Source of the DNA: an uncultured Gemmatimonadota bacterium | GTDB lineage: Bacteria > JAAXHH01 | DNA length: 64,000 nucleotides | Reading direction: 5' to 3' | NCBI GenBank assembly: GCA_951812955.1 | Contig: OX638340.1 | Location: 1,920,001 to 1,984,000, forward strand | Part shown: positions 23,302-51,714 of the stretch, one piece after another | Layout: each line of letters begins with the position of its first letter | Numbering within the stretch: the stretch's first letter is position 1 | Notes under the pieces: model-generated | Databases searched by the model: none | Told to the model about the DNA's origin: nothing | Seen by the model: the letters and a program-made list of their open reading frames with translations, nothing else | Translations under genes and position numbers: made by a program

Positions 23302-24123
23302 ATGTCCGCCAAGGATCCCGCCCAGACTTACCGCATGCACGACGCCAATCGCCTTCACTGGGACAAGTCCGCCGGTTACTGGGCTGATATGCGCGAGCGG
23401 GACGGAATGTGGCGCCGCTGTCCGCTGGAACCCGAATTGGGATTCGCGGGCGGCGCCTTCGAGTTGATCGGATCCTTCGCCGGCGACCTGGAAGGAAAGG
23501 AAGTATGCGTCGTCGGCAGCGGGGACAATCATGCCGTCTTCGCCCTGGCGGGCATGAAGGCCCAGGTCACTTCCATCGACATATCGGAAAGGCAACTGGA
23601 AACAGCTTCCGAACGCGCGAAGCACCTGGGCCTGGCGATCGACTTCGTCCAGGCAGACGTGATGGACCTTAAGCCGCTTTGTGACAGGAAGTTCGACCTG
23701 GTCTGCTCGACCAACGGTTTCTTCGTCTGGATCGCGGATCTTCGTGCGGTATTCGAGGAGATCTTTCGCATCCTGAAACCGGGCGGACACTACGTTTTCT
23801 ACGATGTACATCCCTTCCAGAGACCCTGGAAAGACGGGAATCGGACGGTCGAAGTGGACAAACCTTACTGGCAAACCGGACCGTTACTAGACGAAAAAGA
23901 GGGCACCTTCGAATTCAACTGGACGCTCGGCGACCTGCTGAATCCGTTGGCGGATTCGGGATTCGTCCTGGGGCGTATCCTGGAACATCCCGCCGGGAAT
24001 TCGAGCTTCTGGGAAGGATCTTCCTACTTGCCCGGGGAGAAAGACAGCTTGCTCGACTGGAAGGAGAATCCCAGGGCCGCCCTGCCGGTCTGGCTTTCGG
24101 CGGCTCTGCAGCGACCGGGATAG
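23302..24123 (+). CDS. class I SAM-dependent methyltransferase
   Basis: Motif I 'VCVVGSGDN'; paralog of 36389..37201. Confidence 0.7.
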   Translation: MSAKDPAQTYRMHDANRLHWDKSAGYWADMRERDGMWRRCPLEPELGFAGGAFELIGSFAGDLEGKEVCVVGSGDNHAVFALAGMKAQVTSIDISERQLETASERAKHLGLAIDFVQADVMDLKPLCDRKFDLVCSTNGFFVWIADLRAVFEEIFRILKPGGHYVFYDVHPFQRPWKDGNRTVEVDKPYWQTGPLLDEKEGTFEFNWTLGDLLNPLADSGFVLGRILEHPAGNSSFWEGSSYLPGEKDSLLDWKENPRAALPVWLSAALQRPG

Positions 24124-26762: not shown

Positions 26763-26814
26763 GCCGAGGCTATTCGATTTTGGCTGTTGCATTGCTCCCT
26801 TTGGCCTAGTCACG

Positions 26815-26898
26815 AGAAAGGTGGATTGTTGACACGGAAAGGATGGTTCGTTGAAGAGTGGTACATTGTTGAAGCGTAACAGACGAACCGGGGCGGTT
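26815..26898. repeat. copy A of an ~85-bp imperfect direct repeat (partner at 33894..33976)
   Basis: ggtggattgttgacacggaaaggatggttcgttgaagagtggtacattgttgaagcgtaacagacgaaccggggcgg versus copy B; roughly 85% identity by eye. Confidence 0.5.
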
Positions 26899-27150
26899 TC
26901 CCTAATCGATCGGCTCGGGTTCCCTGAACTGCGCTGACGTGACGAGCCAAGTCGCTAATTCAAAGGGTGATCCGTCTAAACGCGTTGACAGGATGGTTCT
27001 CAAATGCTTATAGTCCGGTAGAGAACCACTCAGTTGTATCTCGGCCTCATGCGGTCACGTATTGCGCAGTCCAAAACCAGTAAAATGGCCGTGCGAACTG
27101 CCGATCATGGTATGTTACAGCACACATGCGATGACAAGCGAACGATTAAC

Positions 27151-28098
27151 ATGAACCATTCGCCAACCGATACGTCCGCGCCGACAGGTACGCTCGCGCC
27201 AACCAGGCACGACCCTATCGAAGTTTCTCCGATACGGGCGGTGAACGTGGCTTTGGTCCCTCAACGAAGTCCGCTGCGGTACCCCGGTGGAAAGACGTGG
27301 CTGATTCCGCATATCCGGTTCTGGCTCGGCAAGATCGACCCTTCGCCTCGACTTCTGATCGAACCCTTCGCCGGCGGCGGGATCGTCTCCCTGACAGCGG
27401 TCATGGAAGGACTGGCCGAGCGGTGCATCATGGCGGAACTGGACCCCGACGTGGCTGCTTTCTGGCAGGCGGCGCTCAGGTCCGGACCTGAGCTCTGCGA
27501 CAAGGTGCTGCGCTTCCGACCAACGCGGGAAGCCGTCGAAGCCGTGGCGAGTATCAGACCGAGCGACCCGGTAGACCATGGTTTCCGCACGCTCGTGCTC
27601 AACCGAACGCGAAGGGGTGGCATTCTGGCTCCCGGCGCGGCGCTCAGTCGGGCGGGAGAAAACGGGAAGGGCGTCGCGTCCCGCTGGTATCCCGAAACCA
27701 TCGTAGGCCGTTTACGAGAGATCGCGGAACACGCCGACCGCATCGGCTTTCGCGAAACCGACGGCATCGGGTTGTTGGAGGAGTTGCTGGAAGCACGCGC
27801 GGGATCGGCGCTGGAGAACCCTTCCGACCCGGTGGTCTTCGCCGACCCTCCGTACACGGCCGGCGGCAAGCGCGCGGGAAGGCGGCTGTACACCCACAAC
27901 GAGATCGACCATCACCGGTTGTTCGAACTGCTTGCGGACAGCGGTGCGCGTTTCCTGATGACCTACGACAGGTCGTCCGAGATCGTGGCTCTCAGCCGGA
28001 AGCATGGATTCCACGCGGTACAGGTGACCATGAAGAACACCCATCACGCACGGATACCGGAACTGATCATCACCCCCGAACCGGTGTTCGTCAGTTGA
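27151..28098 (+). CDS. D12-class (Dam-like) N6-adenine DNA methyltransferase
   Basis: 'RYPGGK' motif I region and 'FADPPY' catalytic motif IV; start taken at MNHSPTDT (track ORF begins 27034). Confidence 0.8.
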   Translation: MNHSPTDTSAPTGTLAPTRHDPIEVSPIRAVNVALVPQRSPLRYPGGKTWLIPHIRFWLGKIDPSPRLLIEPFAGGGIVSLTAVMEGLAERCIMAELDPDVAAFWQAALRSGPELCDKVLRFRPTREAVEAVASIRPSDPVDHGFRTLVLNRTRRGGILAPGAALSRAGENGKGVASRWYPETIVGRLREIAEHADRIGFRETDGIGLLEELLEARAGSALENPSDPVVFADPPYTAGGKRAGRRLYTHNEIDHHRLFELLADSGARFLMTYDRSSEIVALSRKHGFHAVQVTMKNTHHARIPELIITPEPVFVS

Positions 28099-28973
28099 GT
28101 TCCCGTTACGGCATCGCGGAATGGTACGGGTTGCCATTCCCCTATCTCCCACCTGCTGCCCGCCATCATCTTGCAAAAAAAGCGTTACGGGAAGACCCCA
28201 ATGCTCCCGCGTGTCCGTTTCAAAACGGCCGGCCTCCATGCCGAAAGCGTGGCGGAATATGTTCCCTTGTTCGCTATGAACGGGATTCGGACGGAAGGCT
28301 TGGCTTGCCAAAAGGAAATCCGGTCATCGTTTGTCCGTCCCGATTCGAGGAAGAGCAACTGCTCGTTACCTGGTTGGCCGAGATCGTTGGCTTTGGACCG
28401 GACGAGGCGATGATCGCTCGCGAAGTAGCCTTCATGGAAGGAACCAGCACGGAGAGACCGGCTGGAAAAATCGATCTAGTCGTCGCCAGGGCCTCCAATG
28501 ACGATCTGAAATGGTTTGGACTGGAAATACAAGCCGTCTATTTCTCAGGTCAAGGCATGCCGTCCGAGTTCGCCAACCTACGGGACGACGATCATCGAAG
28601 ACCACCGTTTCCAAACGCGGTCCGTAGACCGGACTGGCGCTCTTCGAGCGCAAAGCGCCTCATGCCGCAGTTGCAAATCAAAGTGCCGACGCTACGCCGA
28701 TGGGGTTCGAAACTCGCCGTGTCGGTAGACCGGCCGTTTTTCGATTCGATTGGTGGTCCCAGTGCGCATCCCAGCCAGGACCTCAACGATGGGGACATCA
28801 TCTGGTTGATCCCGGAGTTGAAGCGGGAAGCCGGTGGTAACTTCAGGCTCACTCGGGGACATTGGGAAGTGCTCACGTTGGAGGATACGACCCGGAAACT
28901 CCTTGCGGCGGAAACGATCCGGCGGGAAGCGTTTGAGCAGGAGCTCCGCAGCAAACTCGAAGCGCTTCGGTGA
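28095..28973 (+). CDS. NotI-family type II restriction endonuclease
   Basis: N-terminal alignment to R.NotI ('IAEWYG' vs 'IAEFFG', 'CPF', 'GICSL' vs 'GVCVV', 'VCPSRF' vs 'VCPNRA', Cys4 metal site); TTG start overlapping MTase stop (TTGA). Confidence 0.6.
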   Translation: MSSRYGIAEWYGLPFPYLPPAARHHLAKKALREDPNAPACPFQNGRPPCRKRGGICSLVRYERDSDGRLGLPKGNPVIVCPSRFEEEQLLVTWLAEIVGFGPDEAMIAREVAFMEGTSTERPAGKIDLVVARASNDDLKWFGLEIQAVYFSGQGMPSEFANLRDDDHRRPPFPNAVRRPDWRSSSAKRLMPQLQIKVPTLRRWGSKLAVSVDRPFFDSIGGPSAHPSQDLNDGDIIWLIPELKREAGGNFRLTRGHWEVLTLEDTTRKLLAAETIRREAFEQELRSKLEALR

Positions 28974-29073
28974 GGCAGCGGACGACACCCGGGATACTGG
29001 GGTTCAAGATCGACGACTCGGTGTTAACCTTATGTCATCGGATGTGTAGTGCACCCCAAAATGGGACAAGTAG

Positions 29074-29950
29074 TTAAGCTACAGTTTTAACACGTGTCAT
29101 CCTCTGCTCGAACTCGACCGGCGGTCTGTAGTCCAGGGCCGAGTGCAAGCGCTTGCGATTGTATAGTTTGTCGATGAAGTAGCCGATGCGTGATCGGGCT
29201 TCTTCCAGGGATTCGTACTCGTAGAGATAGACCTCCTCGTATTTGAGCGTCCTGATGAAGCGCTCTGCCCTGGCGTTGTCATAGGGGTTGCCTTGCCGGC
29301 TCATGCTGATCCGTATGCCAGCGTTCTTGAGCGTGTCTACATAGGCTTTCGAGGCATACTGCACGCTCCGGTCGGAGTGATGCACAAGCCCTTTCTGCGC
29401 TGGTCTGGCGGCCAGGGCGCTGTCGAGGGCGTTCAGGGCCAAGGTGGCATCGAGGGTTCGATCCAAGGCCCAGCCGATGCATCTTCTGCTGCAGGCGTCA
29501 AGGATCACCGCCAGATAGACCCATTCGCGAGCCAGCCTTATGTAGGTGATGTCGGATACCCAGAGCTGGTTGACATTGGTTACGTTCAGTTCCGGGACCA
29601 GGTTGGCGTAAACGGCGCGGTCGTGATTCGAGTCGGTGGTCGCTACGAAGGCTCGGCGCCGCAGGGCAAGCAGGTTGTCCTCGCGCATGAGACGCAGAAC
29701 GCGCTTGTGGTTCACATGGTATCCCATACGCTTTAGCGCGCGGGTCATGGGACGGTAACCGTAGGCGGGTCAGGAAAGGGCGAGCCTGTGGATCTGATCC
29801 CGCAGTGCAAGGTCCGGATCCGTACGACCACGACGACCGCGGTAGTAGCTGGATCGACCGATCGAGAGCGTCCTGCACAGACGCTTGACCACGGCGCGGT
29901 CGGTGGACGCCTTTGATTGAGCGACCAGGCAGATCATGAGCTTCCTCCAT
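29074..29950 (-). pseudogene. IS3 transposase orfB (integrase core) interrupted by an in-frame TGA
   Basis: 'LCRTLSIGRSSYYRGRR...IHRLALS*PAYGYRPMTRALKRMGYHVNHKRVLRLMRE...DITYI...DRSVQYAS...YNRKRLHSALDYRPP' DDE/rve motifs. Confidence 0.7.
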
Positions 29951-30259
29951 TGCCTCGGGCTGAGCGTGGGATCTCCTCGAGCCGACTCAAGACTTTTTTT
30001 AACACATCGTTCTCCATGGTCAGTTGACCGACCTTGCGCTCAAGGGCCTAGGGTCCGGGCCTCGTCACTTACCGCCTTGCCATCCATTACCGGGGAAAGC
30101 GCGGTCGCCCTGGCGGCGAAGCTGCTGACGCCACCTGTGGATCAGCGTAGGATGGACCTGGTGTTCTCGGGCCAACTGGCTGATGGATTTGCCCGAATCG
30201 GCTTCCTGGAGAACCTGGAGCTTGAACTCGCGGGTGAACTGACGGCGTTTCAGGGACAT
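29951..30259 (-). pseudogene. IS3 transposase orfA (HTH), frameshifted
   Basis: 'MSLKRRQFTREFKLQVLQEADSGKSISQLAREHQVHPTLIHRWRQQL' then stop; leucine-zipper part 'ALERKVGQLTMENDVLKKVLSRLEE' continues in another frame. Confidence 0.65.
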
Positions 30260-30328
30260 GGGGTACCTCCTCGTTCAGAAGGAAGCTTAACTCACTGTCC
30301 CGGACAAGGGTGCAGTACACAGAACACG

Positions 30329-31252
30329 TTACAGAGGAAGTTTGTTGTAGCTGATTCCGAATCCAAACCGCACATCGTAAGAGCTCTGAGTCGGGACGGT
30401 GCTAAGCTCTTCGATATTCGAAGTATCGATCTTAGAGCCGCCCTGCATCGTCGGACCTTGACTTATATGAGCACCAAAGGTGAGCCAAGTAGACTTTCCG
30501 ATCTCCAAACTTGGACCGAAGATATATTCTAGAACCGTTCCCGGTTCGCCTCCGATTTCTGCGAGCGTTCCTAAACTCAAGTTTACATCCCAACCATTAC
30601 CAATCCGCAAAACGTGCGAATTAACAACGGTTCCTGGCATCACTTGGAAATCCGACCAACTTGTGAAGAAACCGACGCTAATAGAGAACGGGGACTCGCA
30701 AACGAACGTGACCAAAGGATACTCATTCTTCTTGGCGGCTTCGTTTTTCTCCCCGTCCTCATTATCTTGCGGGAACAAGTCGAAAACCACCAAGGTCCAC
30801 TCTTCTTTTCGAGATTTGAAGTCGCACTCGATCGACTGTGAGATTTCAGACTTGGTGCCCTTGTGCATCTCAATAGATGATTGAAGGTATCTTTTTAATG
30901 CCGTAATCTGATCGTTCGCTTGACTCCACTTACTTTCTGCTAATTCAATCTCTACAAGAGCACTGCCAGTCTGCGTCAACGCACTGTCAATCTGTGCCAA
31001 CAAAACACTGTCAGGTAATTGCAATGCACCGCCAAGTGCCTCCCTGTTGTTCCTATTTGCCAAGTTCATCAAACGATCCTGAAGGGAAACTTGGCGATCC
31101 TGAAGGGAAGATATCTGCGGCCAGTTTCCCTTCTCAATTTCACCTATGAGTTGACCGCTTCTGTATATCAGTGTGTCGCTTGGAAAATACATATTACTAA
31201 TATCAATGAAATCGCGCAGTTTCTTAATCTGATTAGAGGTTACTTGACGCAA
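30329..31252 (-). CDS. hypothetical protein (AT-rich foreign gene; coiled-coil N-terminus, beta-rich C-terminus)
   Basis: 307-aa ORF with markedly lower GC than surroundings; no recognisable motifs. Confidence 0.45.
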   Translation of the reverse strand: MRQVTSNQIKKLRDFIDISNMYFPSDTLIYRSGQLIGEIEKGNWPQISSLQDRQVSLQDRLMNLANRNNREALGGALQLPDSVLLAQIDSALTQTGSALVEIELAESKWSQANDQITALKRYLQSSIEMHKGTKSEISQSIECDFKSRKEEWTLVVFDLFPQDNEDGEKNEAAKKNEYPLVTFVCESPFSISVGFFTSWSDFQVMPGTVVNSHVLRIGNGWDVNLSLGTLAEIGGEPGTVLEYIFGPSLEIGKSTWLTFGAHISQGPTMQGGSKIDTSNIEELSTVPTQSSYDVRFGFGISYNKLPL

Positions 31253-31767
31253 GCTGTTAGCCTGGTTTTGTGCAACGTCGGTTTCTTAAGCAAAGAGGCG
31301 GTTTCTCTAAATAAAGAATCGATGCCTTCAGGCGGTGTGCCAACGTTGCTTATATTAAACGAGGAATTGACGTTTTGAAACACACTATCAGCCTGGATTT
31401 CATTCGTCATCTCCCATTGGCATAGCTGGCGCAGGTAGTTGAGCGTATTGGGGGCGTCAAGCGCCTCAACCTGACGGCGGATTTCGTATCTATAGCGAAC
31501 TAAGTTAAGATCCACTACTGTGATGGATGCTTTGTAATGAACTTGCACTTCACCATAGGAACCTTGGGGCCTTTGAAGGGAGTAAGTCAAATCTTGTCCG
31601 GCAGCTACCGGCATATCTGATCCGACAAACAACAGCACACCGGCGATGTGGAAAAGAGCATTTAATAGACGATACTTCGTCCGAGATCCCCGTGGTGGTC
31701 CTAAGGAAACGAGCGGTATTCCTGAAATGACGGTTCTCACGTTTCGGTTCTCCGACATCCCTTTCAT
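31240..31767 (-). CDS. hypothetical protein with N-terminal signal-anchor
   Basis: 175-aa ORF overlapping downstream gene by 13 nt (operon); hydrophobic segment 'LLNALFHIAGVLLFVGS'. Confidence 0.4.
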   Translation of the reverse strand: MKGMSENRNVRTVISGIPLVSLGPPRGSRTKYRLLNALFHIAGVLLFVGSDMPVAAGQDLTYSLQRPQGSYGEVQVHYKASITVVDLNLVRYRYEIRRQVEALDAPNTLNYLRQLCQWEMTNEIQADSVFQNVNSSFNISNVGTPPEGIDSLFRETASLLKKPTLHKTRLTACVK

Positions 31768-31849
31768 AAACGACCTCCTGTAATTGGCCTCAAAAACTGG
31801 ATCTCGTCAAAGGTGGATGTACCATAGCAGACAACCCGGCACGCGGAAG

Positions 31850-32245
31850 GCCGATGGTATGTTGAAAAGACGCAGACGGGCCCAGCGTCCGGTGCAAGTT
31901 TCAGGTGGCTCTCGAAGCGCTCATGGGACTGAAGGCCATCAGCCAGTTGGCCGCGGAGCATCAAGGCCAACACAATCAGATCACCAAATGGAAACGCCGG
32001 TTACTCGATGAGGGCGATCAAGTTTTTAACCACAGGCGACCGGTCCCGATGGCGTTCAAGATGCCATAGTGGACCAGCTCTACGAGCAGATCGGACGCTT
32101 GAAGATGGAACTGAAGTGGCTAAAAAAGTTGCCCTTTCAACGCGTCACAGACGCCTGATGATCGATGTCGATACGCCTCGGCTTTCCATACGCTGTCATT
32201 GCGAACTGATGGATCTTTCAAGGTCCAGCTTCTACCAAGAATAGG
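31850..32245 (+). mobile_element. fragment of a second IS3-family element (orfA remnant plus first ~20 codons of orfB), frameshifted and truncated
   Basis: Frames give 'KFQVALEALMGLKAISQLAAEHQGQHNQITKWKRRLLDEGDQVF', 'VDQLYEQIGRLKMELKWLKKL', 'LSIRCHCELMDLSRSSFYQE*'. Confidence 0.55.
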
Positions 32246-32273
32246 ACTTGCATAACATTAGCATGTCGGGCAG

Positions 32274-33062
32274 TTACAATGTATTACGGATCCTGTTCGC
32301 TATACACTTGAATACCCATTCATTAGGATGGAGTTCATCATCCCAGAAATTCTTGTAATGACCTGGACTGTTACTAAGAAGATCACGAACATCTACGTAA
32401 CGTACATAGTCATAGTTTACTGCCAACAACTGAAGCATTTCGTTGAACTTGTCTATCAGTACCTCCATCACCCTGGTAGCAAACCAAAGGTCATCGTGAC
32501 TTTTTTTAATATTGTATCCCTTTTTCCTGAATACCGGATAGAGCCAAGGCCCCTTTACCTTTATCCAAAACTTGAACTTGCGTCCATCGGGAACTGGGTG
32601 GCCATATCCATGGACGATTATCGGAATATCACTTTGGGGCCAATACACTAAACAAGCTCCCCTTATAACTTCGATAAGTTGCGAGTAGTAAGTACGAAGA
32701 TAGCAGAATATCATTTTCTGGACTTCATTCGTGTCTAACGCACTATTTACATCTGATGCTGATGTACGATCGTTAAGCATTTTCTTCAGCTTCTTTGTCA
32801 GATCATTGCCGCCACCGGAGAGGAGGACTGCTTTGGGTTTGCTATTGAGTTTGTGTAGTTTTTGTAGTTTTTTAAGAAGGGCTTTGTGTTGTTCTTGTGC
32901 ATAGGCCATATCCTTGAGCGTGTCACCGTGTTTAGCTACACTTCTCACTTTGTATCCCATGCCCCTTAACCCCTCTAATACATCATCAGCTTGATTTGTA
33001 GAGTTTGGCAAATCGAACCATGAATCACCCTCCGCTACCAAGATTGGTTTTTGATTTGGCAT
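32274..33062 (-). CDS. SGNH/GDSL-family hydrolase (AT-rich foreign gene)
   Basis: Block I 'VAEGDSWFD', block III 'GGGND', block V 'DELHPN'; low GC. Confidence 0.55.
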   Translation of the reverse strand: MPNQKPILVAEGDSWFDLPNSTNQADDVLEGLRGMGYKVRSVAKHGDTLKDMAYAQEQHKALLKKLQKLHKLNSKPKAVLLSGGGNDLTKKLKKMLNDRTSASDVNSALDTNEVQKMIFCYLRTYYSQLIEVIRGACLVYWPQSDIPIIVHGYGHPVPDGRKFKFWIKVKGPWLYPVFRKKGYNIKKSHDDLWFATRVMEVLIDKFNEMLQLLAVNYDYVRYVDVRDLLSNSPGHYKNFWDDELHPNEWVFKCIANRIRNTL

Positions 33063-33184
33063 GTTAGTTCTCCTCTATAGGTGGATTACTATAGGAACCT
33101 CTGATCAAGTCTACCCGCCCCGGGGAAGCTGATGTCACTCATCTTTCGCGGACGGTTTACGGTTAGATATTCAGATTGATTCCT

Positions 33185-33532
33185 TTAGTACAGATCGACC
33201 CGGAAGGCGCCTCGCGTCAAGGCCTCCTGCAGTCTCGTCTGGTGGCTGCGATGACGCGGATGTCCGATGATACTGCCCGGACGCTTCCCAAGGGACGATA
33301 GGTCTTCTCGGAGAGGACCCGCAGCGTGGATCGCCTTGGCGATCAGTTCCTTGCCGGCCCCCGTTTCGCCCGTGATCAATACGGGCATATCCTTTGATGC
33401 GTAACGGTAGGCTCTCGCCGGGATCCATTTCATCTCGTGGCTCCTGTGCTTGATCGCATCGAAGGCGCCGTGCGCTTCATGCCCTTGCGCTGGTTCCGGC
33501 GGATTCTGGCTCGTCATCAGGGAGTACGCCAT
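33185..33532 (-). pseudogene. fragment of a sigma-54-dependent transcriptional activator (start of AAA+ domain only)
   Basis: 'VLITGETGAGKELIAKAIH' Walker A of the sigma-54 interaction domain, then divergence and stop after about 115 aa. Confidence 0.5.
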
Positions 33533-33893
33533 GGTTGCTCCGGATTAAGGCAGGTAAACCTAGCAAAAATCGGACCCGGTATTTTCGTGTTTTTCATGTA
33601 AAGTGGTATGAATTACAATATGATGGAAAAAGAGTGACTTGTGTGTGAATTATCCGCTCAGCAAGAAGAATATTGCGCGAATTTTACGCATAGTGTATCA
33701 TATCGCCATCACGGCCAGCTCTCGATCGGCCTCCGGCGGGCATTCCAGCGCGTCCGCCCAACCTGAGCGTTTCACCCTCAGAAGGCGATCTATCCGGCCG
33801 GCCTCCGACGGGCGTTCCGGCGAGTCGACCTCCGGCCGCAGGAGCGCCGCATGCCGCAGGGATCACGGGCAAGGGTCACGGGCAAGGGTCACG

Positions 33894-33976
33894 GGAAGGA
33901 TGGATCTGTGACACGGAAAGGATGGACCGGTGAAGCGTGATACATCGGTGAAGCGTAAAGACGGACCGGGGCGGGA
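33894..33976. repeat. copy B of the ~85-bp imperfect direct repeat; overlaps the 5' end of the hybrid kinase gene
   Basis: ggatggatctgtgacacggaaaggatggaccggtgaagcgtgatacatcggtgaagcgtaaagacggaccggggcgg. Confidence 0.5.
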
Positions 33977-36305
33977 GATCGAGGCGCTGCGCGAACGCAT
34001 CTCGATGCTGAGCGCGGCAAGCCTGCGCATCAGCGCGAGCCTGGACCTGGAGACCGTCCTGCACGAGGTCATCAACAGCGCCCGCGCGCTGATCGAGGCT
34101 CGTTACGGCGGCATCGTCACCATCGACGAGTCCGGGCAGCCCCGGGACTTCATCACCTCCGGTTTCACCGACGCGGAGCACCGCCAAATGGCCGACTGGC
34201 CCGACGGGCCCAGGCTCTTCGAGCACTTCCGCGACCTCAAGGGCGTGCTGAGACTGCCGGATGCGCGCGCCTACGTGCGCTCGCTCGGCTTCGCCTCGGA
34301 CCGGCTGTCGTCCGGCACCTTCCTGGGCACCCCGATGCGCCATCGCGGCCTGCACGTCGGCAACTTCTATCTCGTCGAGAAGGAAGGCGGAGCGGAGTTC
34401 ACCAGCGAGGACGAGGAGATCCTGGTGCTGTTCGCCTCCCAGGCTGCGACGGCCATCGCCAATGCCCGCACGTACCAGGCCGAGCAGCGCGCCCGGGCCG
34501 ACCTGGAGGCCCTGGTCGAGACCTCGCCGGTGGGCGTCCTGGTCTTCGATGCCGGGACCGGCCGGCTCATGTCGTCCAATCAGGAGGCGAAGCGGATCGT
34601 GGAGGGCCTGCGCATGCCGGGCCGTCCCATGGAGGCGCTGCAGGAGGTGATCACCTGCCGGCGCGCCGACGGGCGCGAGATCGCACTGGAGAAGTTGCCC
34701 CTGTCGCAGGTGCTGAACCGCACCGAGACGGTCCGGGCCGAGGAGATGGTGCTCTCGGTCCCCGACGGACGAAGCGTCACGGCGCTGATCAATTCCACGC
34801 CGATCCACTCGGAGCAAGGCGCTGTCGTGTCCGTTGTGGTCACCATGCAGGACCTGGCGCCGCTACAGGAACTGGAGCGATTACGGGCGGAGTTCCTTGG
34901 CCTGGTGAGTCATGAGTTGCGCACCCCGCTCACGTCGATCAAGGGCTCGGCGGCCACGCTGCTGGATGCCGCCCCGAAACTCGACCCGGCGGAGATGCGC
35001 GAGTTCTGCCGCATCATCCTCTCGCAGGCCGATCACATGCGCGTCCTGATCAGCGACCTGCTGGACGCGGGCCGCATCGACACGGGCACGCTGTCGGTGA
35101 CGCCCGAGCCCTCCGAGGTCGCCGCCCTGGTGGACCGGGCGCGGACCACGTTCCAGAGCGGCGGCGGCAGGCACCCCGTACTGATCGACCTGCCGCCCGA
35201 TCTGCCACGGGTCATGGCCGACCGGCAGCGCATCGAACAAGTGCTGAACAACCTGTTCGCCAATGCCGCGCGGCACGCTCCCGAGTCCTCTCCCATCAGG
35301 GTCTCCGGGGCGCGCGACGGGGTGCATGTCGCGGTCACGGTACGCGACGAAGGCGCGGGAGTAGCGCCCGACCGGCTCCCGCATCTCTTTCGGAAATATG
35401 CCGGGCTCGAGGGCGGCGACCGCGAGTCCGGGGCTGCCGGCTCGGGGCTCGGTCTGGCCATCTGCAAAGGGCTGGTCGAAACTCACGGAGGGCGTATCCG
35501 GGCCGAAAGTCCGGGCATGGGCCAGGGCACGCGCATCACCTTCACGATCCCGGTAGCCGCCGAGGCCGCCGAGGCCGCCCGAGAGCCGGTTCGTACCGAC
35601 CCGCAAGACACCGGAGAAACTGGCGAGCCGACGCGCATCCTCGTGGTCGACGACGACCCGCAGACGCTACGCTACGTGCGCGAAGCGCTCACGGCGGCCG
35701 GCTACTCCGCGCTCGTGACCAGCAACCATGACGAACTGGCGAGCATTATACACGCCGAGCGACCCGAACTGGTCCTGCTGGACCTGCTGCTGCCCGGCAC
35801 GGACGGTATAGCGTTGATGGAACGCCTGCCCGAACTGGCCGAACTTCCGGTCATCTTCATCTCCGCCTACGGACGGGACGAGACCATCGCGCGGGCGCTC
35901 GATACCGGCGCCGCCGACTACCTCGTCAAGCCCTTCTCGACGACCGAGCTCGTGGCGCGGATCCGGGCGGCGCTGCACAGACGGGCCGATCCCGACCCCT
36001 TCGTGCTGGGCGAACTCGCCATCCACTACGATCGGCGAAGGGTGAGCACAGGCGGTGTACGGGTCGACCTCACCGCCACCGAGTATGAGCTGCTGCGCGT
36101 CCTCTCGCTCAACGCGGGACGGGTTTTGACCTTCGCCACCCTGATGCGCCAGGTCTGGGGTACGCGCGCCTACGCCAATCCGAAGCTCGTGCGCGCCTTC
36201 GTCAAGAAGCTCCGCCACAAGCTCGGCGACAATGCAGACAAGCCTATCTACATCTTCAACGAGCGCGGGGTCGGCTACCGAATGGCCCAGCCGGCCGAAT
36301 CGTAG
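33930..36305 (+). CDS. single-polypeptide two-component system: GAF-PAS-HisKA-HATPase_c-REC-OmpR/PhoB-type winged-helix DNA-binding domain
   Basis: H-box 'LVSHELRTPLTSI', G-boxes 'GSGLGLAICKGLVETHGG', REC 'ILVVDDDP...DLLLPGTDG...KPF', trans_reg_C 'VDLTATEYELLRVL...RGVGYRM'; very GC-rich. Confidence 0.8.
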   Translation: MKRDTSVKRKDGPGREIEALRERISMLSAASLRISASLDLETVLHEVINSARALIEARYGGIVTIDESGQPRDFITSGFTDAEHRQMADWPDGPRLFEHFRDLKGVLRLPDARAYVRSLGFASDRLSSGTFLGTPMRHRGLHVGNFYLVEKEGGAEFTSEDEEILVLFASQAATAIANARTYQAEQRARADLEALVETSPVGVLVFDAGTGRLMSSNQEAKRIVEGLRMPGRPMEALQEVITCRRADGREIALEKLPLSQVLNRTETVRAEEMVLSVPDGRSVTALINSTPIHSEQGAVVSVVVTMQDLAPLQELERLRAEFLGLVSHELRTPLTSIKGSAATLLDAAPKLDPAEMREFCRIILSQADHMRVLISDLLDAGRIDTGTLSVTPEPSEVAALVDRARTTFQSGGGRHPVLIDLPPDLPRVMADRQRIEQVLNNLFANAARHAPESSPIRVSGARDGVHVAVTVRDEGAGVAPDRLPHLFRKYAGLEGGDRESGAAGSGLGLAICKGLVETHGGRIRAESPGMGQGTRITFTIPVAAEAAEAAREPVRTDPQDTGETGEPTRILVVDDDPQTLRYVREALTAAGYSALVTSNHDELASIIHAERPELVLLDLLLPGTDGIALMERLPELAELPVIFISAYGRDETIARALDTGAADYLVKPFSTTELVARIRAALHRRADPDPFVLGELAIHYDRRRVSTGGVRVDLTATEYELLRVLSLNAGRVLTFATLMRQVWGTRAYANPKLVRAFVKKLRHKLGDNADKPIYIFNERGVGYRMAQPAES

Positions 36306-36388: not shown

Positions 36389-37201
36389 TTAAACCCGCTT
36401 CTTCCGACCCACCAGGACCAGGTTCGCCGGCATTTTCTCAAGCGGCGCGCCGCCCTCCCAGTCCTGGTTCCCGTCACCGTACTCCTCCACGGCCAGGAGT
36501 TCGCATCCACTCTCGATCAGCGCGCGGATCATGTCCGAAACGGTCCAGTGGAATTCATAACTGGGGAGCGGACTGGGCGGTCCTTGGCGTCCTTGCGTAC
36601 CGGACGGCCCCGCACCCTCGGGCAGTTCCTCTGACCGGTCATAGGTAAAGGGACCGTGGTCGAAGTAATGATATTCCTGTTTCAGCGGCCCGGCGTCGAG
36701 TTTCCATAGCCTGCGGAACGGATGGTACTCGTTGACCATGAAGAGTCCGCCGTGTTTGAGAATCCGGATTCCCTCGCCGTAGTAGCGCTGCAGGTCGGAC
36801 ACCCAGACAGCAACGTGGCCTCCCGTGTAAACGATGTCGAAATGATCGTCCGGCAGTTCGTGCAGATCAGTCACGTCAGCCTGGAGAAACCGGATCGAGA
36901 GTCCAAGCTCACCCGCTCTTCCGGCGGCGATATCCAGCTGGGTCTGCGATATATCCACGGAGGTGACCCGCGCCCCGGCACCGGCCAGGGCAAAGGCCGC
37001 CAGGTTGTCTCCGCTGCCGAGCACGCAGACGGACCTTCCGGATACCTCGCCGAGGTATTTCAATTCGACGGCGTCCAGCACAAGATGGATGTTGTCCGGG
37101 ATGCTCCGCCAGTCCACCCTGGCGTCGATCTCCGCCTGCCATCCGGCGGAAACGGCGTCCCAGCCCCTGCGATTCGCCTCGTGCATGGGATGCTGGCTCA
37201 T
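36389..37201 (-). CDS. class I SAM-dependent methyltransferase (paralog of 23302..24123)
   Basis: 'VCVLGSGDNLAAFALAGAGARVTSVDIS...FLQADV...ILKHGG' colinear with 23302 protein. Confidence 0.7.
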   Translation of the reverse strand: MSQHPMHEANRRGWDAVSAGWQAEIDARVDWRSIPDNIHLVLDAVELKYLGEVSGRSVCVLGSGDNLAAFALAGAGARVTSVDISQTQLDIAAGRAGELGLSIRFLQADVTDLHELPDDHFDIVYTGGHVAVWVSDLQRYYGEGIRILKHGGLFMVNEYHPFRRLWKLDAGPLKQEYHYFDHGPFTYDRSEELPEGAGPSGTQGRQGPPSPLPSYEFHWTVSDMIRALIESGCELLAVEEYGDGNQDWEGGAPLEKMPANLVLVGRKKRV

Positions 37202-37204
37202 TTA

Positions 37205-37375
37205 CTTAAATCCTCCCAGCGACATCGATCCGCCCAGAGCTCTCCCGATTCAGGCACGCTGGTTCAGGGCCCTCCCGGTTCAGGCTCTCCCGCTCAGGGC
37301 CCGCTCGAGTCAGGGTCCGCCTGGCTTGACCCAGGTACTCCCGACTCAGGCACGCAGCCTCAGGTCCGCGCGGCT
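37205..37375. repeat. degenerate tandem array of about 17-18-bp units (consensus CTCCCGNTTCAGGCNCG, about 9 copies) between two methyltransferase genes
   Basis: Seen directly: ctcccgattcaggcacg ctggttcagggcc ctcccggttcaggctct cccgctcagggcccg ctcgagtcagggtccg ... ctcccgactcaggcacg. Confidence 0.45.
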
Positions 37376-38157
37376 CAGACTCTCCTGGCTACCCACACTT
37401 GCTCATGTCCATGCCGGAACGGTCCGCGTCGGAAGTCGCCGTATAGTGCCTCGACTTCGTAGCCACATACTTCGAGGAGGTACTGCATTTCGAAACGGTG
37501 CACGTAGCGCAGGTGTAGCGGGGTGGCAGTCTTCGAAAGTACACGGCCCTCGTCGTCCACTTCCTCGAAGAACCGGTGTTCCTCCAGCGTCTGCTCCAAC
37601 GGATCGTACCGGCGCGTATCCGATACCATGACGCGGCGTCCCGTTTCAGGATGCACGATCGATTCCATGTAATTGATGGTACCGGAAGGTCTCGACATGT
37701 ACGCCGCGATGATCTCGATGCTCGGATCGAAGATGTTGAACACCAGGCGCCCTTGCTCCGTCAGGTGTTCTCGGATGCGGGTCAAGGCCCGCCGCTGGTC
37801 GTCGGGGGTCATCATGTGAAGGAACGCGCGGTACGGTATGATGGCCAGCGGGAAACGCCGTTCCAGGCTGAATGTCCGCATATCGCCTTCGACGATCTGA
37901 ATGCGCCGCTGTGTATCGTCCGGCAGCGCGTCGATCTTCCGACGCGCCACATCCAGCATCGCCGGCGCCCGATCCAGTCCGACGATGGACGTACCCGACT
38001 CGGCGATCGGGATCGTGATCCGGCCGGTTCCGCAACCGATTTCCAGCACGGGGCCGTCCGCCCTGGCGGCTTCTTCCACGTAGAATGCCTCGTCGCCTTC
38101 GAGCCCCGTCGAGTAGCTGTCGTATATCCCGGCGTCCGTCCTGTCGTATTCTGACAT
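37375..38157 (-). CDS. class I SAM-dependent methyltransferase
   Basis: Motif I 'VLEIGCGTGR', 'LTEQGRLVFNIF'. Confidence 0.7.
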   Translation of the reverse strand: MSEYDRTDAGIYDSYSTGLEGDEAFYVEEAARADGPVLEIGCGTGRITIPIAESGTSIVGLDRAPAMLDVARRKIDALPDDTQRRIQIVEGDMRTFSLERRFPLAIIPYRAFLHMMTPDDQRRALTRIREHLTEQGRLVFNIFDPSIEIIAAYMSRPSGTINYMESIVHPETGRRVMVSDTRRYDPLEQTLEEHRFFEEVDDEGRVLSKTATPLHLRYVHRFEMQYLLEVCGYEVEALYGDFRRGPFRHGHEQVWVARRV

Positions 38158-40158: not shown

Positions 40159-40827
40159 ATGCCGCAGATTTTCTCCCCCGCCGCTAATACGTGGCTCAAG
40201 GCGAGTATTGTTGGCGGGGCGTTGCTTCTGGCAACCACATTAGGTGTGATTTTATACCTCGGTTCGACTTCCTATGTTACCCGGCAGCACCAGGTAAGAC
40301 CCCAACCCGTTCCCTTCAGCCATCGGCACCACGTCAATCAACTCGGCATCGACTGCCGTTATTGCCACACGTCGGTCGAAACGAGCGCTTTCGCCGGCCT
40401 GCCGCCGACCAAGACGTGCATGAGCTGCCACTCGCAGGTCTGGACCGACGCGCCCATGCTCGAACCGGTGCGTACGAGCTACGCCACTGGAGAATCCCTG
40501 GAATGGACCCGGGTGCACGACCTTCCGGACTACGTGTATTTCGATCATAGTATTCATATAAACAAGGGTATCGGCTGCGAGTCCTGTCACGGCGCCGTCA
40601 ACGAGATGGCCCTGATGTGGCAGGAAGAGTCGCTGCAGATGATGTGGTGTCTCGAGTGTCACCGCAACACCGATGCCTTCATACGGGAACGGGCGGACGT
40701 CTACAAATTCGAATCCCAGCCCGATTACTCGGCGCCGACCGACCAGATGGCACTCGGCGCGCAACTGACCCGGGGCTACCGGGTCAACAAGGAACAGTTG
40801 GAAGACTGTTCCATCTGCCATAGATAG
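40159..40827 (+). CDS. actA: alternative complex III subunit ActA (pentahaem cytochrome c)
   Basis: N-terminal TM anchor; five CxxCH motifs (CRYCH, CMSCH, CESCH, CLECH, CSICH). Confidence 0.8.
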   Translation: MPQIFSPAANTWLKASIVGGALLLATTLGVILYLGSTSYVTRQHQVRPQPVPFSHRHHVNQLGIDCRYCHTSVETSAFAGLPPTKTCMSCHSQVWTDAPMLEPVRTSYATGESLEWTRVHDLPDYVYFDHSIHINKGIGCESCHGAVNEMALMWQEESLQMMWCLECHRNTDAFIRERADVYKFESQPDYSAPTDQMALGAQLTRGYRVNKEQLEDCSICHR

Positions 40828-40895
40828 CAGGGACGAGGCCACGGTAACGGACCATGAATAACACTTCTGAACGGCAGATCACGGAAAAGGAAGCA

Positions 40896-43868
<2,973 letters not shown>

Positions 43869-43913
43869 GGCCGGACGTGGGTTAACAGGAAGACACGGCT
43901 GCAGACACCGTGA

Positions 43914-45314
43914 ATGAGGAGTGGCTCCTTGTCGCAACAGGGTGTTGACATAGAAAAGGCCAAAACGTACACCGGCGACGGTTTCGTAGCGCCCGAGTAC
44001 ACCAATACCACCGTCACGGAGAAGATCTCCAACATTGTCCTCCGGTCGCACACGCCATTGGGGTGGTTCCTGGCCGTGGCGGTCCTGCTGCCGGTCGTCG
44101 GCATGCTGGGCATCTCCATTACCTGGCTGGTGTTGATCGGGACCGGGATCTGGGGGCTGAACGTGCCGGTCGGCTGGGGATTCGCCATCATCAACTTCGT
44201 CTGGTGGATCGGGATCGGCCACGCCGGGACGCTCATCTCCGCCATTTTACACCTGATGCGGCAGGACTGGCGCAACTCGATCAACCGGTTCGCGGAAGCC
44301 ATGACGATCTTTGCCGTGATGTGCGCCGGCATGTTCCCACTGCTTCACGTGGGGCGTCCCTGGCTCGCCTACTGGCTGCTTCCGCTGCCCAACACCATGT
44401 CGCTCTGGCCCCAGTGGCGTTCGCCGCTGGTCTGGGACGTCTTCGCCGTATCCACTTACTTCACCGTTTCCCTGATTTTCTGGTACATGGGCATGATCCC
44501 CGATCTCGGCACGTTGCGGGACCGGGCGAAGCACCCCATTACAGCGCGGATCTTCGGCGTTCTGTCCATGGGCTGGCGCGGCGCGTCCTCCCACTGGGCG
44601 AGGTACGAGAAGGCCTACCTGATCCTGGCCGGCCTGTCCACGCCCCTGGTCCTGTCCGTGCACTCCATCGTTTCGCTGGACTTCGCCGTCTCGCTGATCC
44701 CCGGCTGGCATACCACCGTGTTCCCGCCCTACTTCGTGGCCGGCGCTATCTACGCCGGATTCGCCATGGTGCTGACGCTGACGATCCCGGTGCGCAAGTG
44801 GTTCAAGCTGGAGGGACTCATCACGACGCGGCACCTGGAGAACATGGGCAAGGTGACCCTGGCGACAGGTTTCATCGTCGTGTACGGATACGCCATGGAA
44901 ATGTTTATCTCGTGGTACAGCGCGAGTCCCTACGAAGGGTTCATGATGTGGAACCGTATGTCGGGGCAGTACGCGCCGGTCTACTGGGCGCTGATCTTCT
45001 GCAACGCCGTCAGCATCCAGATACTCTGGTGGAAGCGGGCCCGGCGCAGCCCGGTCGTGCTGTTCATCGTCTCCCTGATCGTCGGTGTCGGCATGTGGCT
45101 CGAACGGTTCGTCATCGTCGTGACCAGCCTGGCCAACGACTATATGCCTTCGTCGTGGGACTACTACGCCGGGACGATCTGGGACTGGAGCCTGTATATC
45201 GGCACCATCGGTTTCTTCCTGTTCATGATGTGCCTGTTCATCCGGTTCCTGCCCATGATTCCGATGTCCGAGATGAAGATGGTCATTCCGAAACACCGGA
45301 AGAAGGACGCCTGA
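43914..45314 (+). CDS. actC: alternative complex III subunit ActC (NrfD/PsrC-like quinol-interacting membrane subunit)
   Basis: Ten-TM NrfD-like protein following actB. Confidence 0.8.
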   Translation: MRSGSLSQQGVDIEKAKTYTGDGFVAPEYTNTTVTEKISNIVLRSHTPLGWFLAVAVLLPVVGMLGISITWLVLIGTGIWGLNVPVGWGFAIINFVWWIGIGHAGTLISAILHLMRQDWRNSINRFAEAMTIFAVMCAGMFPLLHVGRPWLAYWLLPLPNTMSLWPQWRSPLVWDVFAVSTYFTVSLIFWYMGMIPDLGTLRDRAKHPITARIFGVLSMGWRGASSHWARYEKAYLILAGLSTPLVLSVHSIVSLDFAVSLIPGWHTTVFPPYFVAGAIYAGFAMVLTLTIPVRKWFKLEGLITTRHLENMGKVTLATGFIVVYGYAMEMFISWYSASPYEGFMMWNRMSGQYAPVYWALIFCNAVSIQILWWKRARRSPVVLFIVSLIVGVGMWLERFVIVVTSLANDYMPSSWDYYAGTIWDWSLYIGTIGFFLFMMCLFIRFLPMIPMSEMKMVIPKHRKKDA

Positions 45315-45315
45315 T

Positions 45316-45864
45316 ATGAATCACGGACCCGCACAACCTGAATTGCGCGGCCTCATAGCCGAATTCGAGAACGAGGCGGCCATCGTGGAAGCCACGCAGA
45401 AGACCGTGGACGCGGGGTATCATCATATAGAGACGTACACGCCCTACCCGCTCGACGAGTTGCTTGACATCCAGCATCTCCACAAGAACAAGGTGGCGCT
45501 GGTGATCCTGATCGGCGGGTTGACGGGCTGTGCCGTAGGCTTCTTCATGCAGTATTTCGCCTCCGTGATCCACTACCCGATCAACGTGGGCGGCCGGCCC
45601 TTCAACAGCTGGCCGGCTTTCATTCCGGTCATGTTCGAGTGTACGGTCCTGTTCGCTTCCTTTGCCGCGCTGGTCGGAATGATGGTCATGAACAAGCTGC
45701 CGCGGCCGAATCATCCGCTTTTCGATATCGAGCGATTCCGGTACGCGACCCAGGATCGGTTCTTCCTGTGCATCGAGGCCGAAGACCCATACTTCGAGAA
45801 GGACGCGACACGTCAGTTTCTCGAAGAGATGAATCCGCACGAGGTGAACGAAGTTGAAGCGTAA
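45316..45864 (+). CDS. actD: alternative complex III subunit ActD (DUF3341 membrane protein)
   Basis: Position and size in act operon; two TM helices. Confidence 0.7.
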   Translation: MNHGPAQPELRGLIAEFENEAAIVEATQKTVDAGYHHIETYTPYPLDELLDIQHLHKNKVALVILIGGLTGCAVGFFMQYFASVIHYPINVGGRPFNSWPAFIPVMFECTVLFASFAALVGMMVMNKLPRPNHPLFDIERFRYATQDRFFLCIEAEDPYFEKDATRQFLEEMNPHEVNEVEA

Positions 45865-46456
45865 CCCCTTGGCTCTCTTATACGCCGGTATCCTGTGCGT
45901 CCTTTGCCTTGCCGCCACGGCGGCCTGCCGGCAGGACATGCACGATCAGCCGCGCGCCGAGCCCTTCGAGGAGAGCGACTTCTTCGGCGACCGGCGTTCG
46001 GTGCGTCCAGCGGTGGCCGGGACCATACCCCGGGGCCACCTGCGGCTGGACGAGCATTTCTACACGGGCAAAATCGACGGCGCGCTTGCCACGGATTTCC
46101 CGTCTCCGGTGACGATCGAAATGCTGAAGCGGGGGCAGGAACGGTACGATATCTTCTGCGCGCCGTGCCACAGCAAGACCGGGGACGGCCTCGGCATGAT
46201 CGTGCAGCGGGGCATGAAACAGCCGGAGTCCTTCCACAGCCAGCGGCTTCTCGATGTGGAGGTGGGCCATTATTTCGACGTGGTAACCAATGGTTTCGGC
46301 AACATGTACAGTTACGAGGATCGCATCGACCCGGCTGACCGGTGGGCCATCGCCGCCTATGTCCGTGCGCTGCAGATGAGTCAGGGCGCCAACCTGCCCG
46401 AACTCCCGGAATCGGATCAGCAACGCATCCGGCAAATCGTGGAAGTGGAAGAATGA
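45854..46456 (+). CDS. actE: alternative complex III subunit ActE (monohaem cytochrome c lipoprotein)
   Basis: Lipobox 'LAATAAC'; single 'CAPCH' haem site. Confidence 0.75.
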   Translation: MKRNPLALLYAGILCVLCLAATAACRQDMHDQPRAEPFEESDFFGDRRSVRPAVAGTIPRGHLRLDEHFYTGKIDGALATDFPSPVTIEMLKRGQERYDIFCAPCHSKTGDGLGMIVQRGMKQPESFHSQRLLDVEVGHYFDVVTNGFGNMYSYEDRIDPADRWAIAAYVRALQMSQGANLPELPESDQQRIRQIVEVEE

Positions 46457-47655: not shown

Positions 47656-47656
47656 A

Positions 47657-48082
47657 ATGAATCTCGGCAAGAACCATCACATCGTCGACGAGGCGTCAAT
47701 TGAACGGGGCCACGAAGTATTCGAAACCAACGTGCCCCTGGTCATCAAGTTCGGCATCGGCCTGACTGCGCTCGCCATCATTTCCATGGTTTTGATGTGG
47801 TTGATGTTCGTGGTGATCGAAGATTACAACGCGACGACCTTCGACACGCCTTCACCTATGCTCGAAGAGAACGCCATTCCGCCCGAACCGCGGCTGCAGG
47901 TCATCCCCGAAGAGGACCTGATCGCCCTCCAGGAAGCGGAAAATAAGAAACTGAATACTTACGGGTGGGTGATCCGGACGGCGGAAATCGTCCAGATCCC
48001 GATCGACCGGGCCATGCACCTGATCGCGACCGACGACCGGTACAAACTGCCCTCGGCGGCGGGAACCGGGGAAGGACAGTAA
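47657..48082 (+). CDS. small single-TM membrane protein (possible ActG-like accessory subunit)
   Basis: 141 aa, one hydrophobic helix, tightly linked after actF. Confidence 0.45.
   Translation: MNLGKNHHIVDEASIERGHEVFETNVPLVIKFGIGLTALAIISMVLMWLMFVVIEDYNATTFDTPSPMLEENAIPPEPRLQVIPEEDLIALQEAENKKLNTYGWVIRTAEIVQIPIDRAMHLIATDDRYKLPSAAGTGEGQ

Positions 48083-50046: not shown

Positions 50047-50050
<4 letters not shown>
49103..50050 (+). CDS. coxB: cytochrome c oxidase subunit II with C-terminal cytochrome c domain (caa3-type)
   Basis: CuA site 'HSFFIP...[12 protein letters not shown]'; C-terminal 'CDTCH' haem c site. Confidence 0.85.

Positions 50051-51714
<1,664 letters not shown>

Follow-up and report, generated by a model that had tools for sequence, protein, structure and literature searches.

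To our knowledge, work on two-component systems that bind DNA and are contained in one polypeptide has been confined essentially to Bacteroides, whose proteins of this kind sit in the membrane and have an AraC-type output. These Bacteroides hybrid two-component systems (HTCS), among them BT4124 and BT3172, unite a kinase, a receiver and a DNA-binding domain in one chain (PMC11253607). Here we describe a gene of related design and different output in a stretch of 64,000 nucleotides from an uncultured Gemmatimonadota bacterium (contig OX638340.1, positions 1,920,001 to 1,984,000; the whole stretch is hereafter the window). The gene occupies positions 33930–36305 of the plus strand and, by its domain matches, its product fuses a sensor, a kinase, a receiver and an OmpR-type C-terminal DNA-binding domain into one complete system. 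The arrangement is unusual in kind, though the family is large, because the receivers at the C-terminal end of kinases are not normally retrieved by OmpR-class receiver profiles (PMC9981736). We put at about 0.7 the probability of our overall explanation, in which the gene would encode a soluble one-polypeptide system, regulate itself through short GAATW boxes in its promoter and belong to a GC-rich family that has spread horizontally.

In the program-made list of open reading frames (ORFs), the gene is a single uninterrupted ORF of 791 amino acids with a GTG start. A second candidate start, GTG at 33948, would give the 785-amino-acid form seen in relatives. The coding sequence and its predicted domains are:

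33930–36305, plus strand: coding sequence of the one-polypeptide two-component regulator (ORF list; Pfam; 98%-identical orthologues of 785 or 791 amino acids)
34041–34460, plus strand: GAF domain, residues 38–177 (Pfam; alignment to PDB entries 2y79 and 2w3d; column counts)
34500–34853, plus strand: PAS domain, residues 191–308 (Pfam; AlphaFold2 (AF2) secondary structure)
34884–35558, plus strand: kinase core, HisKA/DHp at residues 319–386 with His328 and HATPase_c at residues 431–543 (Pfam; conservation; HK853-type PDB matches)
35637–35966, plus strand: receiver, Response_reg at residues 570–679 with phospho-acceptor D618 (Pfam; conservation; MtrA/KdpE/PhoB-type full-length match)
36060–36284, plus strand: OmpR/PhoB-type winged helix, residues 711–785 (Pfam Trans_reg_C, E 2e-19; MtrA/KdpE alignment)

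All six Pfam matches exceed their gathering scores, bearing out the six-domain fusion that an earlier note on this DNA had read from the letters alone, and the C-terminus matches Trans_reg_C (PF00486) with 69.8 bits against a cut-off of 26.2. Residues 568–789 match solved structures of MtrA and KdpE end to end, through the wing (E ~1e-35), and residues 303–543 match those of HK853-type kinase cores. No NCBIfam model was matched at its cut-off, the best partial matches being PnpS/PhoR-type kinases and MtrA/PhoB/KdpE-type regulators, and Pfam gave no match to an AraC-type output in the protein. The protein is predicted to be soluble because its most hydrophobic 19-residue Kyte-Doolittle window scores just 1.28, which leaves no transmembrane helix. 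An AF2 model of the monomer (mean pLDDT 75, pTM 0.34) places in order an N-terminal coil and helix, the GAF domain, a long helix, the PAS domain, two DHp helices, the catalytic domain, a linker, the receiver and the winged helix, with the linker between catalytic domain and receiver (residues 545–565) disordered.

Catalytic residues were counted in an alignment of the window protein with 82 homologues (83 sequences). The H-box SHELRTP keeps His328 in 83/83 sequences. The ATP-binding boxes keep N445, G475/G477, F487 and G506 in 83/83 and D473 and G508 in 82/83, and the receiver keeps D575, D618, S645 and K667 in all sequences and D574 in all but one. The protein has the H-box histidine in the DHp domain and the N, G1, F and G2 boxes that define class I HisKA kinases. 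It also has the receiver pocket residues and the Trans_reg_C domain of OmpR/PhoB regulators; what sets it apart from these is that it is not a stand-alone two-domain protein with a separate kinase. The switch residue Y664 is invariant in a 36-sequence alignment, the β5-α5 segment that includes it (DY..KPF..EL.ARIRA..RR) is conserved, and the recognition-helix region is strongly conserved within the family. Mean column identity is 0.74 in the winged helix and 0.76–0.79 in the kinase, and lies between 0.74 and 0.82 for all domains including the sensor. Since the sensor is as conserved as the remaining domains, this near-equal conservation suggests that a common cue may be sensed in all hosts.

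Among solved structures, the GAF domain best matches GAF-A of DevS/DosS and DosT of Mycobacterium tuberculosis (2w3d, 2y79 and 2vzw; E 7e-20 over 147 residues). It resembles these domains in the fold match and at the position equivalent to their Tyr171, which is Tyr or Phe in the family. It differs at His149, the proximal ligand of the haem, which aligns with Arg125 of the fusion protein, a position held by Arg in 45 and by Leu in 13 of the 83 members. DevS-type haem sensing was rejected on this ground, and the haem gas-sensing mechanism is not transferable because of this substitution.

Such fusions had been thought uncommon in the earlier note, a view that the ortholog search does not bear out. 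A word-indexed protein search returned >120 clusters (at 90% identity) of the same architecture at ≥70% identity to the query (range 70–98%), all of ~780–830 amino acids with the same Pfam set and with 'response regulator' as the only given name. The sensor module (residues 16–310) alone has relatives in 600 clusters at 50% identity (E ≤ 1e-30). Of the full-length members, six with 41–45% sensor identity were scanned, and all keep the six-domain architecture; a two-GAF variant retains GAF, kinase, receiver and winged helix, and GAF-kinase forms without receiver or output are also present. Judged by these searches, the fusion gene family is large, not rare. A literature search found no description of an OmpR-type fused system or of a sponge-specific two-component system, and the family is an uncharacterised, self-contained signalling gene.

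The spread of the family was followed in a search of one genome per Genome Taxonomy Database (GTDB) species, which gave 172 stretches with a relative. The best 80 of these, 60–86% identical to the window protein, were analysed as loci. Their titles name Latescibacterota, Gemmatimonadetes, Alpha-, Gamma- and Deltaproteobacteria, Spirochaetia, Nitrospinota, Nitrospirales, Binatia, Acidobacteriota (Terriglobia, Vicinamibacterales and Thermoanaerobaculia) and Chloroflexi, amounting to at least eight phylum or class labels. Taxonomy was looked up for three Candidatus genera and the other labels come from record titles; at least one sponge metagenome-assembled genome (MAG) labelled Gemmatimonadetes/Gemmatimonadota at NCBI is Latescibacterota in GTDB, so the label is soft. 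Pairwise identity among the 83 proteins is 57–99% (mean 67%), and nearest neighbours are often in other phyla, as for Xanthomonadales and Terriglobia (90%) or Binatia and Alphaproteobacteria (88%). At the nucleotide level, blastn similarity to the window gene is found in every locus, beginning at 33946–34098 (mostly 33960–33990) and running to the stop codon.

The gene is GC-richer than its surroundings, as had been noticed earlier: its GC content is 0.681, with 0.864 at third codon positions (GC3), against 0.588 in the remaining window. The same excess over flanking DNA is found in 74/78 loci (0.707 ± 0.028 versus 0.648 ± 0.040, correlation 0.35). Up to four copies occur per chromosome, as in the Acidobacteriota record OZ253547.1 (loci L012, L017, L023 and L026). 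The cross-phylum identity, the GC excess over flanks and the multiple copies together point to repeated horizontal transfer of the family among differently labelled phyla. The cross-phylum pattern cannot be put down to binning error, since many of the records are complete chromosomes from long reads. As to vehicles, none of the viral contigs encodes a relative, PLSDB plasmids hold no copy of the fusion and only separate KdpD/KdpE kinase-regulator pairs at <40% identity, and transposases flank few loci only. L087, which is a divergent member, has IS66 and DDE_Tnp_1 transposases at its flanks.

Control of the gene was approached by comparison with its nearest relatives. Three orthologues are 98% identical: L001 and L086, which occupy the same chromosomal position, and L002, whose short contig includes the downstream flank only. 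The orthologue L084 is 87% identical and has unrelated surroundings. The sole upstream non-coding DNA that can be aligned between lineages is a block with the following elements:

33630–33705, plus strand: conserved promoter block (blastn; footprint alignment)
33647–33651, 33668–33672 and 33679–33683, plus strand: three GAATW boxes, at spacings of 21 and 11
33697–33702, plus strand: -10-like TATCAT, 13 nt past the last box (inferred by conservation)

The block reads GTGTGAATTA ... AAGAATATTGCGCGAATTT ... GTATCAT. It is 89% identical over 55 nt to L084 and is also kept in L003–L005, where no synteny with the window was found beyond the gene and ~90 nt of promoter. Position 33639, which the earlier note had given as the gene start, begins a spurious 90-amino-acid ORF in another frame and coincides with the start of this block. 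The -10-like element reads GTAT(C/T)AT in the window, L001–L003 and L084, and GTACCAT in L004 and L005.

GAATW-N6-GAATW occurs once in the 64-kb window, and that occurrence lies in the promoter block. In the 81 loci with enough upstream DNA, GAATW pairs within 40 nt of each other are spaced by 11 (17 pairs in 16 loci), 21–22 or 31–32, and four pairs only fall outside this phased set (spacings of 23, 30, 35 and 37). If one mismatch is tolerated, 25.1 kb of upstream DNA contains 38 instances of the paired motif, spread over 27 loci, a density of 1.51/kb that is 40-fold higher than elsewhere in the loci (0.037/kb) and 11-fold higher than in low-GC control windows (0.135/kb). Three or four boxes stand in phase at several loci. 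The classical layout of OmpR/PhoB-type sites is one of direct repeats placed one helical turn apart, just upstream of the -10. Because the phased layout of the boxes fits such sites and the recognition-helix region is conserved, we infer that the GAATW boxes are candidate binding sites of the protein's own winged helix, which would amount to positive autoregulation.

A second target may exist at other loci. No partner gene is universal across the loci. A very large repeat protein is encoded within 6 kb in 25/82 of them, and in 15 loci a giant repeat gene is divergent from the fusion gene and ≤1.3 kb upstream of it. These 15 loci are labelled Gemmatimonadetes, Alpha- and Gammaproteobacteria, Acidobacteriota and Nitrospirales. 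Three of the giant neighbours were scanned and carry He_PIG, fibronectin-III, cadherin, Calx-beta and Ig-like domains. Such adhesin-like genes are enriched and laterally transferred in sponge symbionts, according to a study that makes no mention of any two-component system (Robbins et al., PMC8163846); the sponge-metagenome literature searched likewise mentions enriched adhesins and restriction systems and not the fusion family. At the divergent loci the phased boxes sit in the shared intergenic region, so the giant adhesin-like gene is a plausible second target of the boxes.

Six MAGs of the family are listed as sponge MAGs (IRC1_bin_16, IRC3_bin_8, COS1_bin_16, RHO1_bin_74, RHO3_bin_65 and RHO3_bin_80; Robbins 2021, supplementary file 9, PMC8163846), their hosts being Ircinia, Coscinoderma and Rhopaloeides. 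Other titles bear sponge-symbiont Candidatus names or coral- or sponge-like bin prefixes, as read from the names, one title being coral-like. It is tempting to see in this a 'holobiont switch', one signalling gene shared across at least eight phyla of bacteria from sponges and corals that would sense a common intracellular cue of life in the host and activate both itself and, in many genomes, the divergent giant cadherin/FN3/Ig adhesin-like genes, an idea that we regard as rather unlikely. If it were true, the activated genes would be ones that are thought to mediate attachment to host tissue.

Taken as a mechanism, our explanation would run as follows. The protein would act as a homodimer, by analogy with class I histidine kinases, and a cytoplasmic cue acting on GAF-PAS would set autophosphorylation of His328. 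The phosphoryl group would pass to Asp618 of the PhoB-like receiver, within the protein or the dimer, after which the two tethered OmpR-type winged helices could bind direct repeats head-to-tail. Binding at the 11-bp-phased GAATW boxes (33647, 33668 and 33679), in the place of a -35 element before TATCAT, would give positive autoregulation, and in 15 other genomes the same boxes may also serve the divergent giant adhesin-like gene.

Several observations count against parts of this explanation. The inter-domain geometry of the AF2 model is unreliable (pTM 0.34). GAATW pairs, with one mismatch allowed, are found in 27/81 loci, so that more than half of the loci are without the motif, and the motif-bearing loci are phylogenetically related, so the enrichment counts are not independent. 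The boxes could belong to another regulator. A scan with the sigma-70 consensus calls a promoter-like site at 33591–33619 (+), upstream of the boxes, and not the TATCAT promoter. Were 33591–33619 in use, the boxes would serve as an operator and not for activation. The scan-preferred site is conserved within the species only, and it is solely for its conservation that TATCAT is kept as the putative activator-dependent promoter. For most of the 80 MAGs, it is the name that suggests a sponge or coral habitat. Strand β4 of the receiver, F643-I-S645-(G/A)-Y647 (window positions 35856–35870; conserved in 81–83 of 83 members), matches the FxSGY motif described for CckA-Rec, a phosphorelay intermediate (PMC9981736), and phosphate could thus flow elsewhere too, although β5-α5 of the receiver is PhoB-like.

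Between the promoter block and the coding sequence, in an indel-rich 5′ leader, lie three kinds of GC-rich repeat:

33727–33826, plus strand: segment of two 28-nt direct repeats (33727–33754 and 33799–33826) with a 44-nt spacer
33856–33899, plus strand: 13-nt tandem AGGGTCACGGGCA, 3.2 copies by Tandem Repeats Finder (TRF), of variable copy number
33890–33933, plus strand: 22-nt tandem, 2 copies by TRF, doubling the Shine-Dalgarno sequence and the start codon

The two 28-nt copies are 86% identical at a spacing of 72 nt. The earlier note was right that they exist and placed them 10 nt too far right (33737–33764 and 33809–33836); its 13-nt tandem is likewise present, as 3.2 copies over 33856–33899 and not as two over 33869–33894. 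The 24-nt consensus that it gave has 2 exact matches in 64 kb versus 0 expected by chance. In the window, a 72-nt insertion creates the second 28-nt copy; L001 and L086 have one copy, and the segment is missing altogether in L002 and L084. Among strains the 13-nt unit is repeated two or three times, twice in both L001 and L002. An 18-nt unit of the start region is missing in L001, and it is the absence of this duplication that distinguishes the 785- from the 791-amino-acid allele. An Rfam scan of 33300–34100 gave no match, and the leader RNA folds with z = +1.22 relative to shuffled sequence, with no excess structure; on these two results the repeats were rejected as a riboswitch or attenuator.

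Two further features of the leader were observed. The 13-nt array contains, over 33859–33895 (+), six GGG tracts with loops of 3–5 nt, a G-quadruplex-type motif on the sense strand; there are four such tracts in L002 and two in L001, so the motif is not conserved. Over 33896–33950 (+) stand tandem copies of AAGGATGGAnCnGTGA, every one of which has a Shine-Dalgarno sequence and an ATG that is followed three codons on by a TGA. The final TGA shares nucleotides with the GTG start at 33930. This tandem could be a device for translational coupling, or a plain duplication of the start region.

That the 28-nt repeats and the 13-nt tandem are operators through which the protein's own OmpR-type domain regulates the gene, as the earlier note proposed, has some points in its favour: the repeats are real and non-random, and direct repeats are known targets of OmpR-family proteins. 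L003 likewise has a GG(A/G)TCAC tandem, and one GCCT(C/T)(C/G)GGCGGGC-like motif is found in the long leaders of L003–L005. Set against this, the second 28-nt copy and then the whole segment vanish among relatives of 98% and 87% identity, the tandem changes between two and three copies, and the 72-nt spacing is far from the 10–11-bp phasing typical of OmpR/PhoB sites. All of the 28-, 13- and 22-nt repeats lie downstream of the sole conserved promoter block, and no repeat element is found in the more distant loci. Strain-specific indels, the fold score and the lack of an Rfam match all disfavour the repeats as operators, a role that we consider improbable. By this comparison the GC-rich repeats are polymorphic, strain-specific duplications and not conserved operators. 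Autoregulation through direct repeats is itself plausible, the GAATW boxes at 33647–33683 being better candidates for it than the GC-rich repeats. The practical upshot for the window is that its eye-catching GC-rich repeats amount to polymorphic noise, the likely control element being the short AT-rich block upstream of them.

A further alternative is that the receiver acts as a phosphorelay intermediate or phosphate sink, in which case a separate Hpt protein and its regulator would give the output and the winged helix would be constitutive or vestigial. C-terminal receivers of hybrid kinases are usually phosphorelay intermediates, which speaks for this possibility together with the resemblance of β4 to the motif of CckA-Rec. 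Opposed to it, no Hpt domain was found in the protein (Pfam) or among the called neighbour genes, although one may be encoded farther away; the receiver and winged helix together match full-length MtrA, KdpE and PhoB end to end, with the β5-α5 segment and Tyr664 conserved; and the winged helix matches the kinase in conservation (0.74 versus 0.76–0.79), which argues against decay. We judge a relay with an idle winged helix to have a small chance of being correct. Least credible of all is that the fusion is an artefact of a frameshift or lost stop codon, or a decaying pseudogene of an island. It is true that the gene borders on a restriction-modification island of variable content and on an eroded gene for a sigma-54 activator, and that the L004 copy has an internal stop codon. 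The uninterrupted architecture of ~785 amino acids nevertheless recurs in >120 clusters and 80 loci, complete long-read chromosomes included, the catalytic residues are invariant, and the position of the gene is kept in relatives sharing both flanks while the island changes. No frameshift splits the gene, which is a single ORF in >80 loci, and the comparative sequence data already refute this reading.

The setting of the gene in the window includes a variable defence island (26763–33180) between a rhodanese gene that ends at 26762 and a remnant of a sigma-54 activator:

26809–26896, plus strand: repeat copy A, 88 nt, bordering the NotI-type restriction-modification island on the left
27034–28098: D12 N6-adenine methyltransferase (island; window and L086)
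28095–28973: NotI-family endonuclease (island; window and L086)
29074–29748: IS3 integrase-core fragment (island; window and L086)
30329–31767: low-GC ORFs with no Pfam match (absent from L086)
32274–33062: GDSL lipase (island)
33185–33532, minus strand: sigma-54 activator remnant (Pfam Sigma54_activat residues 29–73 only; divergent from the fusion gene; context)
33888–33975, plus strand: repeat copy B, the end of the leader and codons 1–15

The window has an additional low-GC insert at 30320–32287, a range that takes in these low-GC ORFs. L001 has other genes at the island site, one for an MmeI-type enzyme and two of the DUF1353 kind. The sigma-54 remnant consists of the Walker-A end of the AAA+ domain only; L086 has a sigma-54 activator of 306 amino acids (AAA+, lid and HTH_8) and L001 has other fragments. 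The variable part does not extend to the fusion gene and its promoter, whose position is kept in L001 and L086, the relatives that share both flanks.

Copies A and B are ~82% identical with one 1-nt indel and lie 7 kb apart; the start codon at 33930 falls within copy B, as the earlier note had observed. Both copies end exactly at the onset of family-wide nucleotide conservation of the coding sequence. Copy A is present in L086 and absent from L001; it travels with the NotI island and without the promoter. No integrase was found in the island or near copy A. The promoter and leader to the left of copy B are native, because L001 has both with a different island. An integrase att-site model for the two copies is unsupported, given an island without an integrase and a native leader to the left of copy B. 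We read copy A as a probable relic of another copy's 5′ end.

Other genes of the window were recorded alongside. Three encode class-I S-adenosylmethionine (SAM) methyltransferases (36389–37201 (-), 37375–38157 (-) and 23302–24123 (+)), of which two lie directly downstream of the fusion gene and convergent with it; all three are syntenic in same-species relatives and not in other lineages. Respiratory genes at 40159–47660 and 50047–51714 encode multihaem cytochrome c, an ActB/NrfD/ActD-type alternative complex III and cytochrome c oxidase subunit I. GlnA, CoxA and CreD of the window belong to 90%-identity clusters that bear the names of Gemmatimonadetes/Gemmatimonadota MAGs, with which the organism thus groups. 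A gene for a protein with collagen repeats and a trypsin-like protease domain (53519–54586 (+)) lies in a low-GC patch (~0.50), and in L003, L084 and L085 a homologue of it is found ~1.5 kb or less from the fusion gene.

With sensor, kinase, receiver and output in one gene and no partner needed, a system of this kind should be easy to transfer, which may explain the 57–99% identity across phyla. If the link to symbionts and adhesins holds, the gene would offer a concrete regulator with which to test how unrelated symbionts sense the host environment. Among known systems, MtrA, KdpE and PhoB with their HisKA kinases (KdpD and PnpS/PhoR type) are alike in the regulator and kinase-core alignments, and the proposed site of the fusion gene, direct repeats phased by 11 bp just upstream of the -10, is reminiscent of a pho box; in those systems, however, kinase and regulator are separate and the kinase is usually membrane-bound, whereas the fusion protein is a single chain. 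Phosphorelay hybrid kinases of the HK-Rec-Hpt type possess the Hpt domain that neither the fusion protein nor its called neighbours encode. The closest known analogue is the Bacteroides HTCS, which shares the one-polypeptide design, the presumably intramolecular signalling and tethered DNA-binding domains held inactive until phosphorylation. HTCS proteins are transmembrane, sense glycans in the periplasm, have an AraC/XylS-type (HTH_18) output and control polysaccharide utilisation loci, whereas the fusion protein is predicted to be soluble, with a cytoplasmic GAF-PAS sensor and an OmpR/PhoB winged helix, and is not encoded beside polysaccharide utilisation genes. The family is in this sense a soluble OmpR-type variant of the HTCS, and would represent a second, independent solution to the one-polypeptide design.

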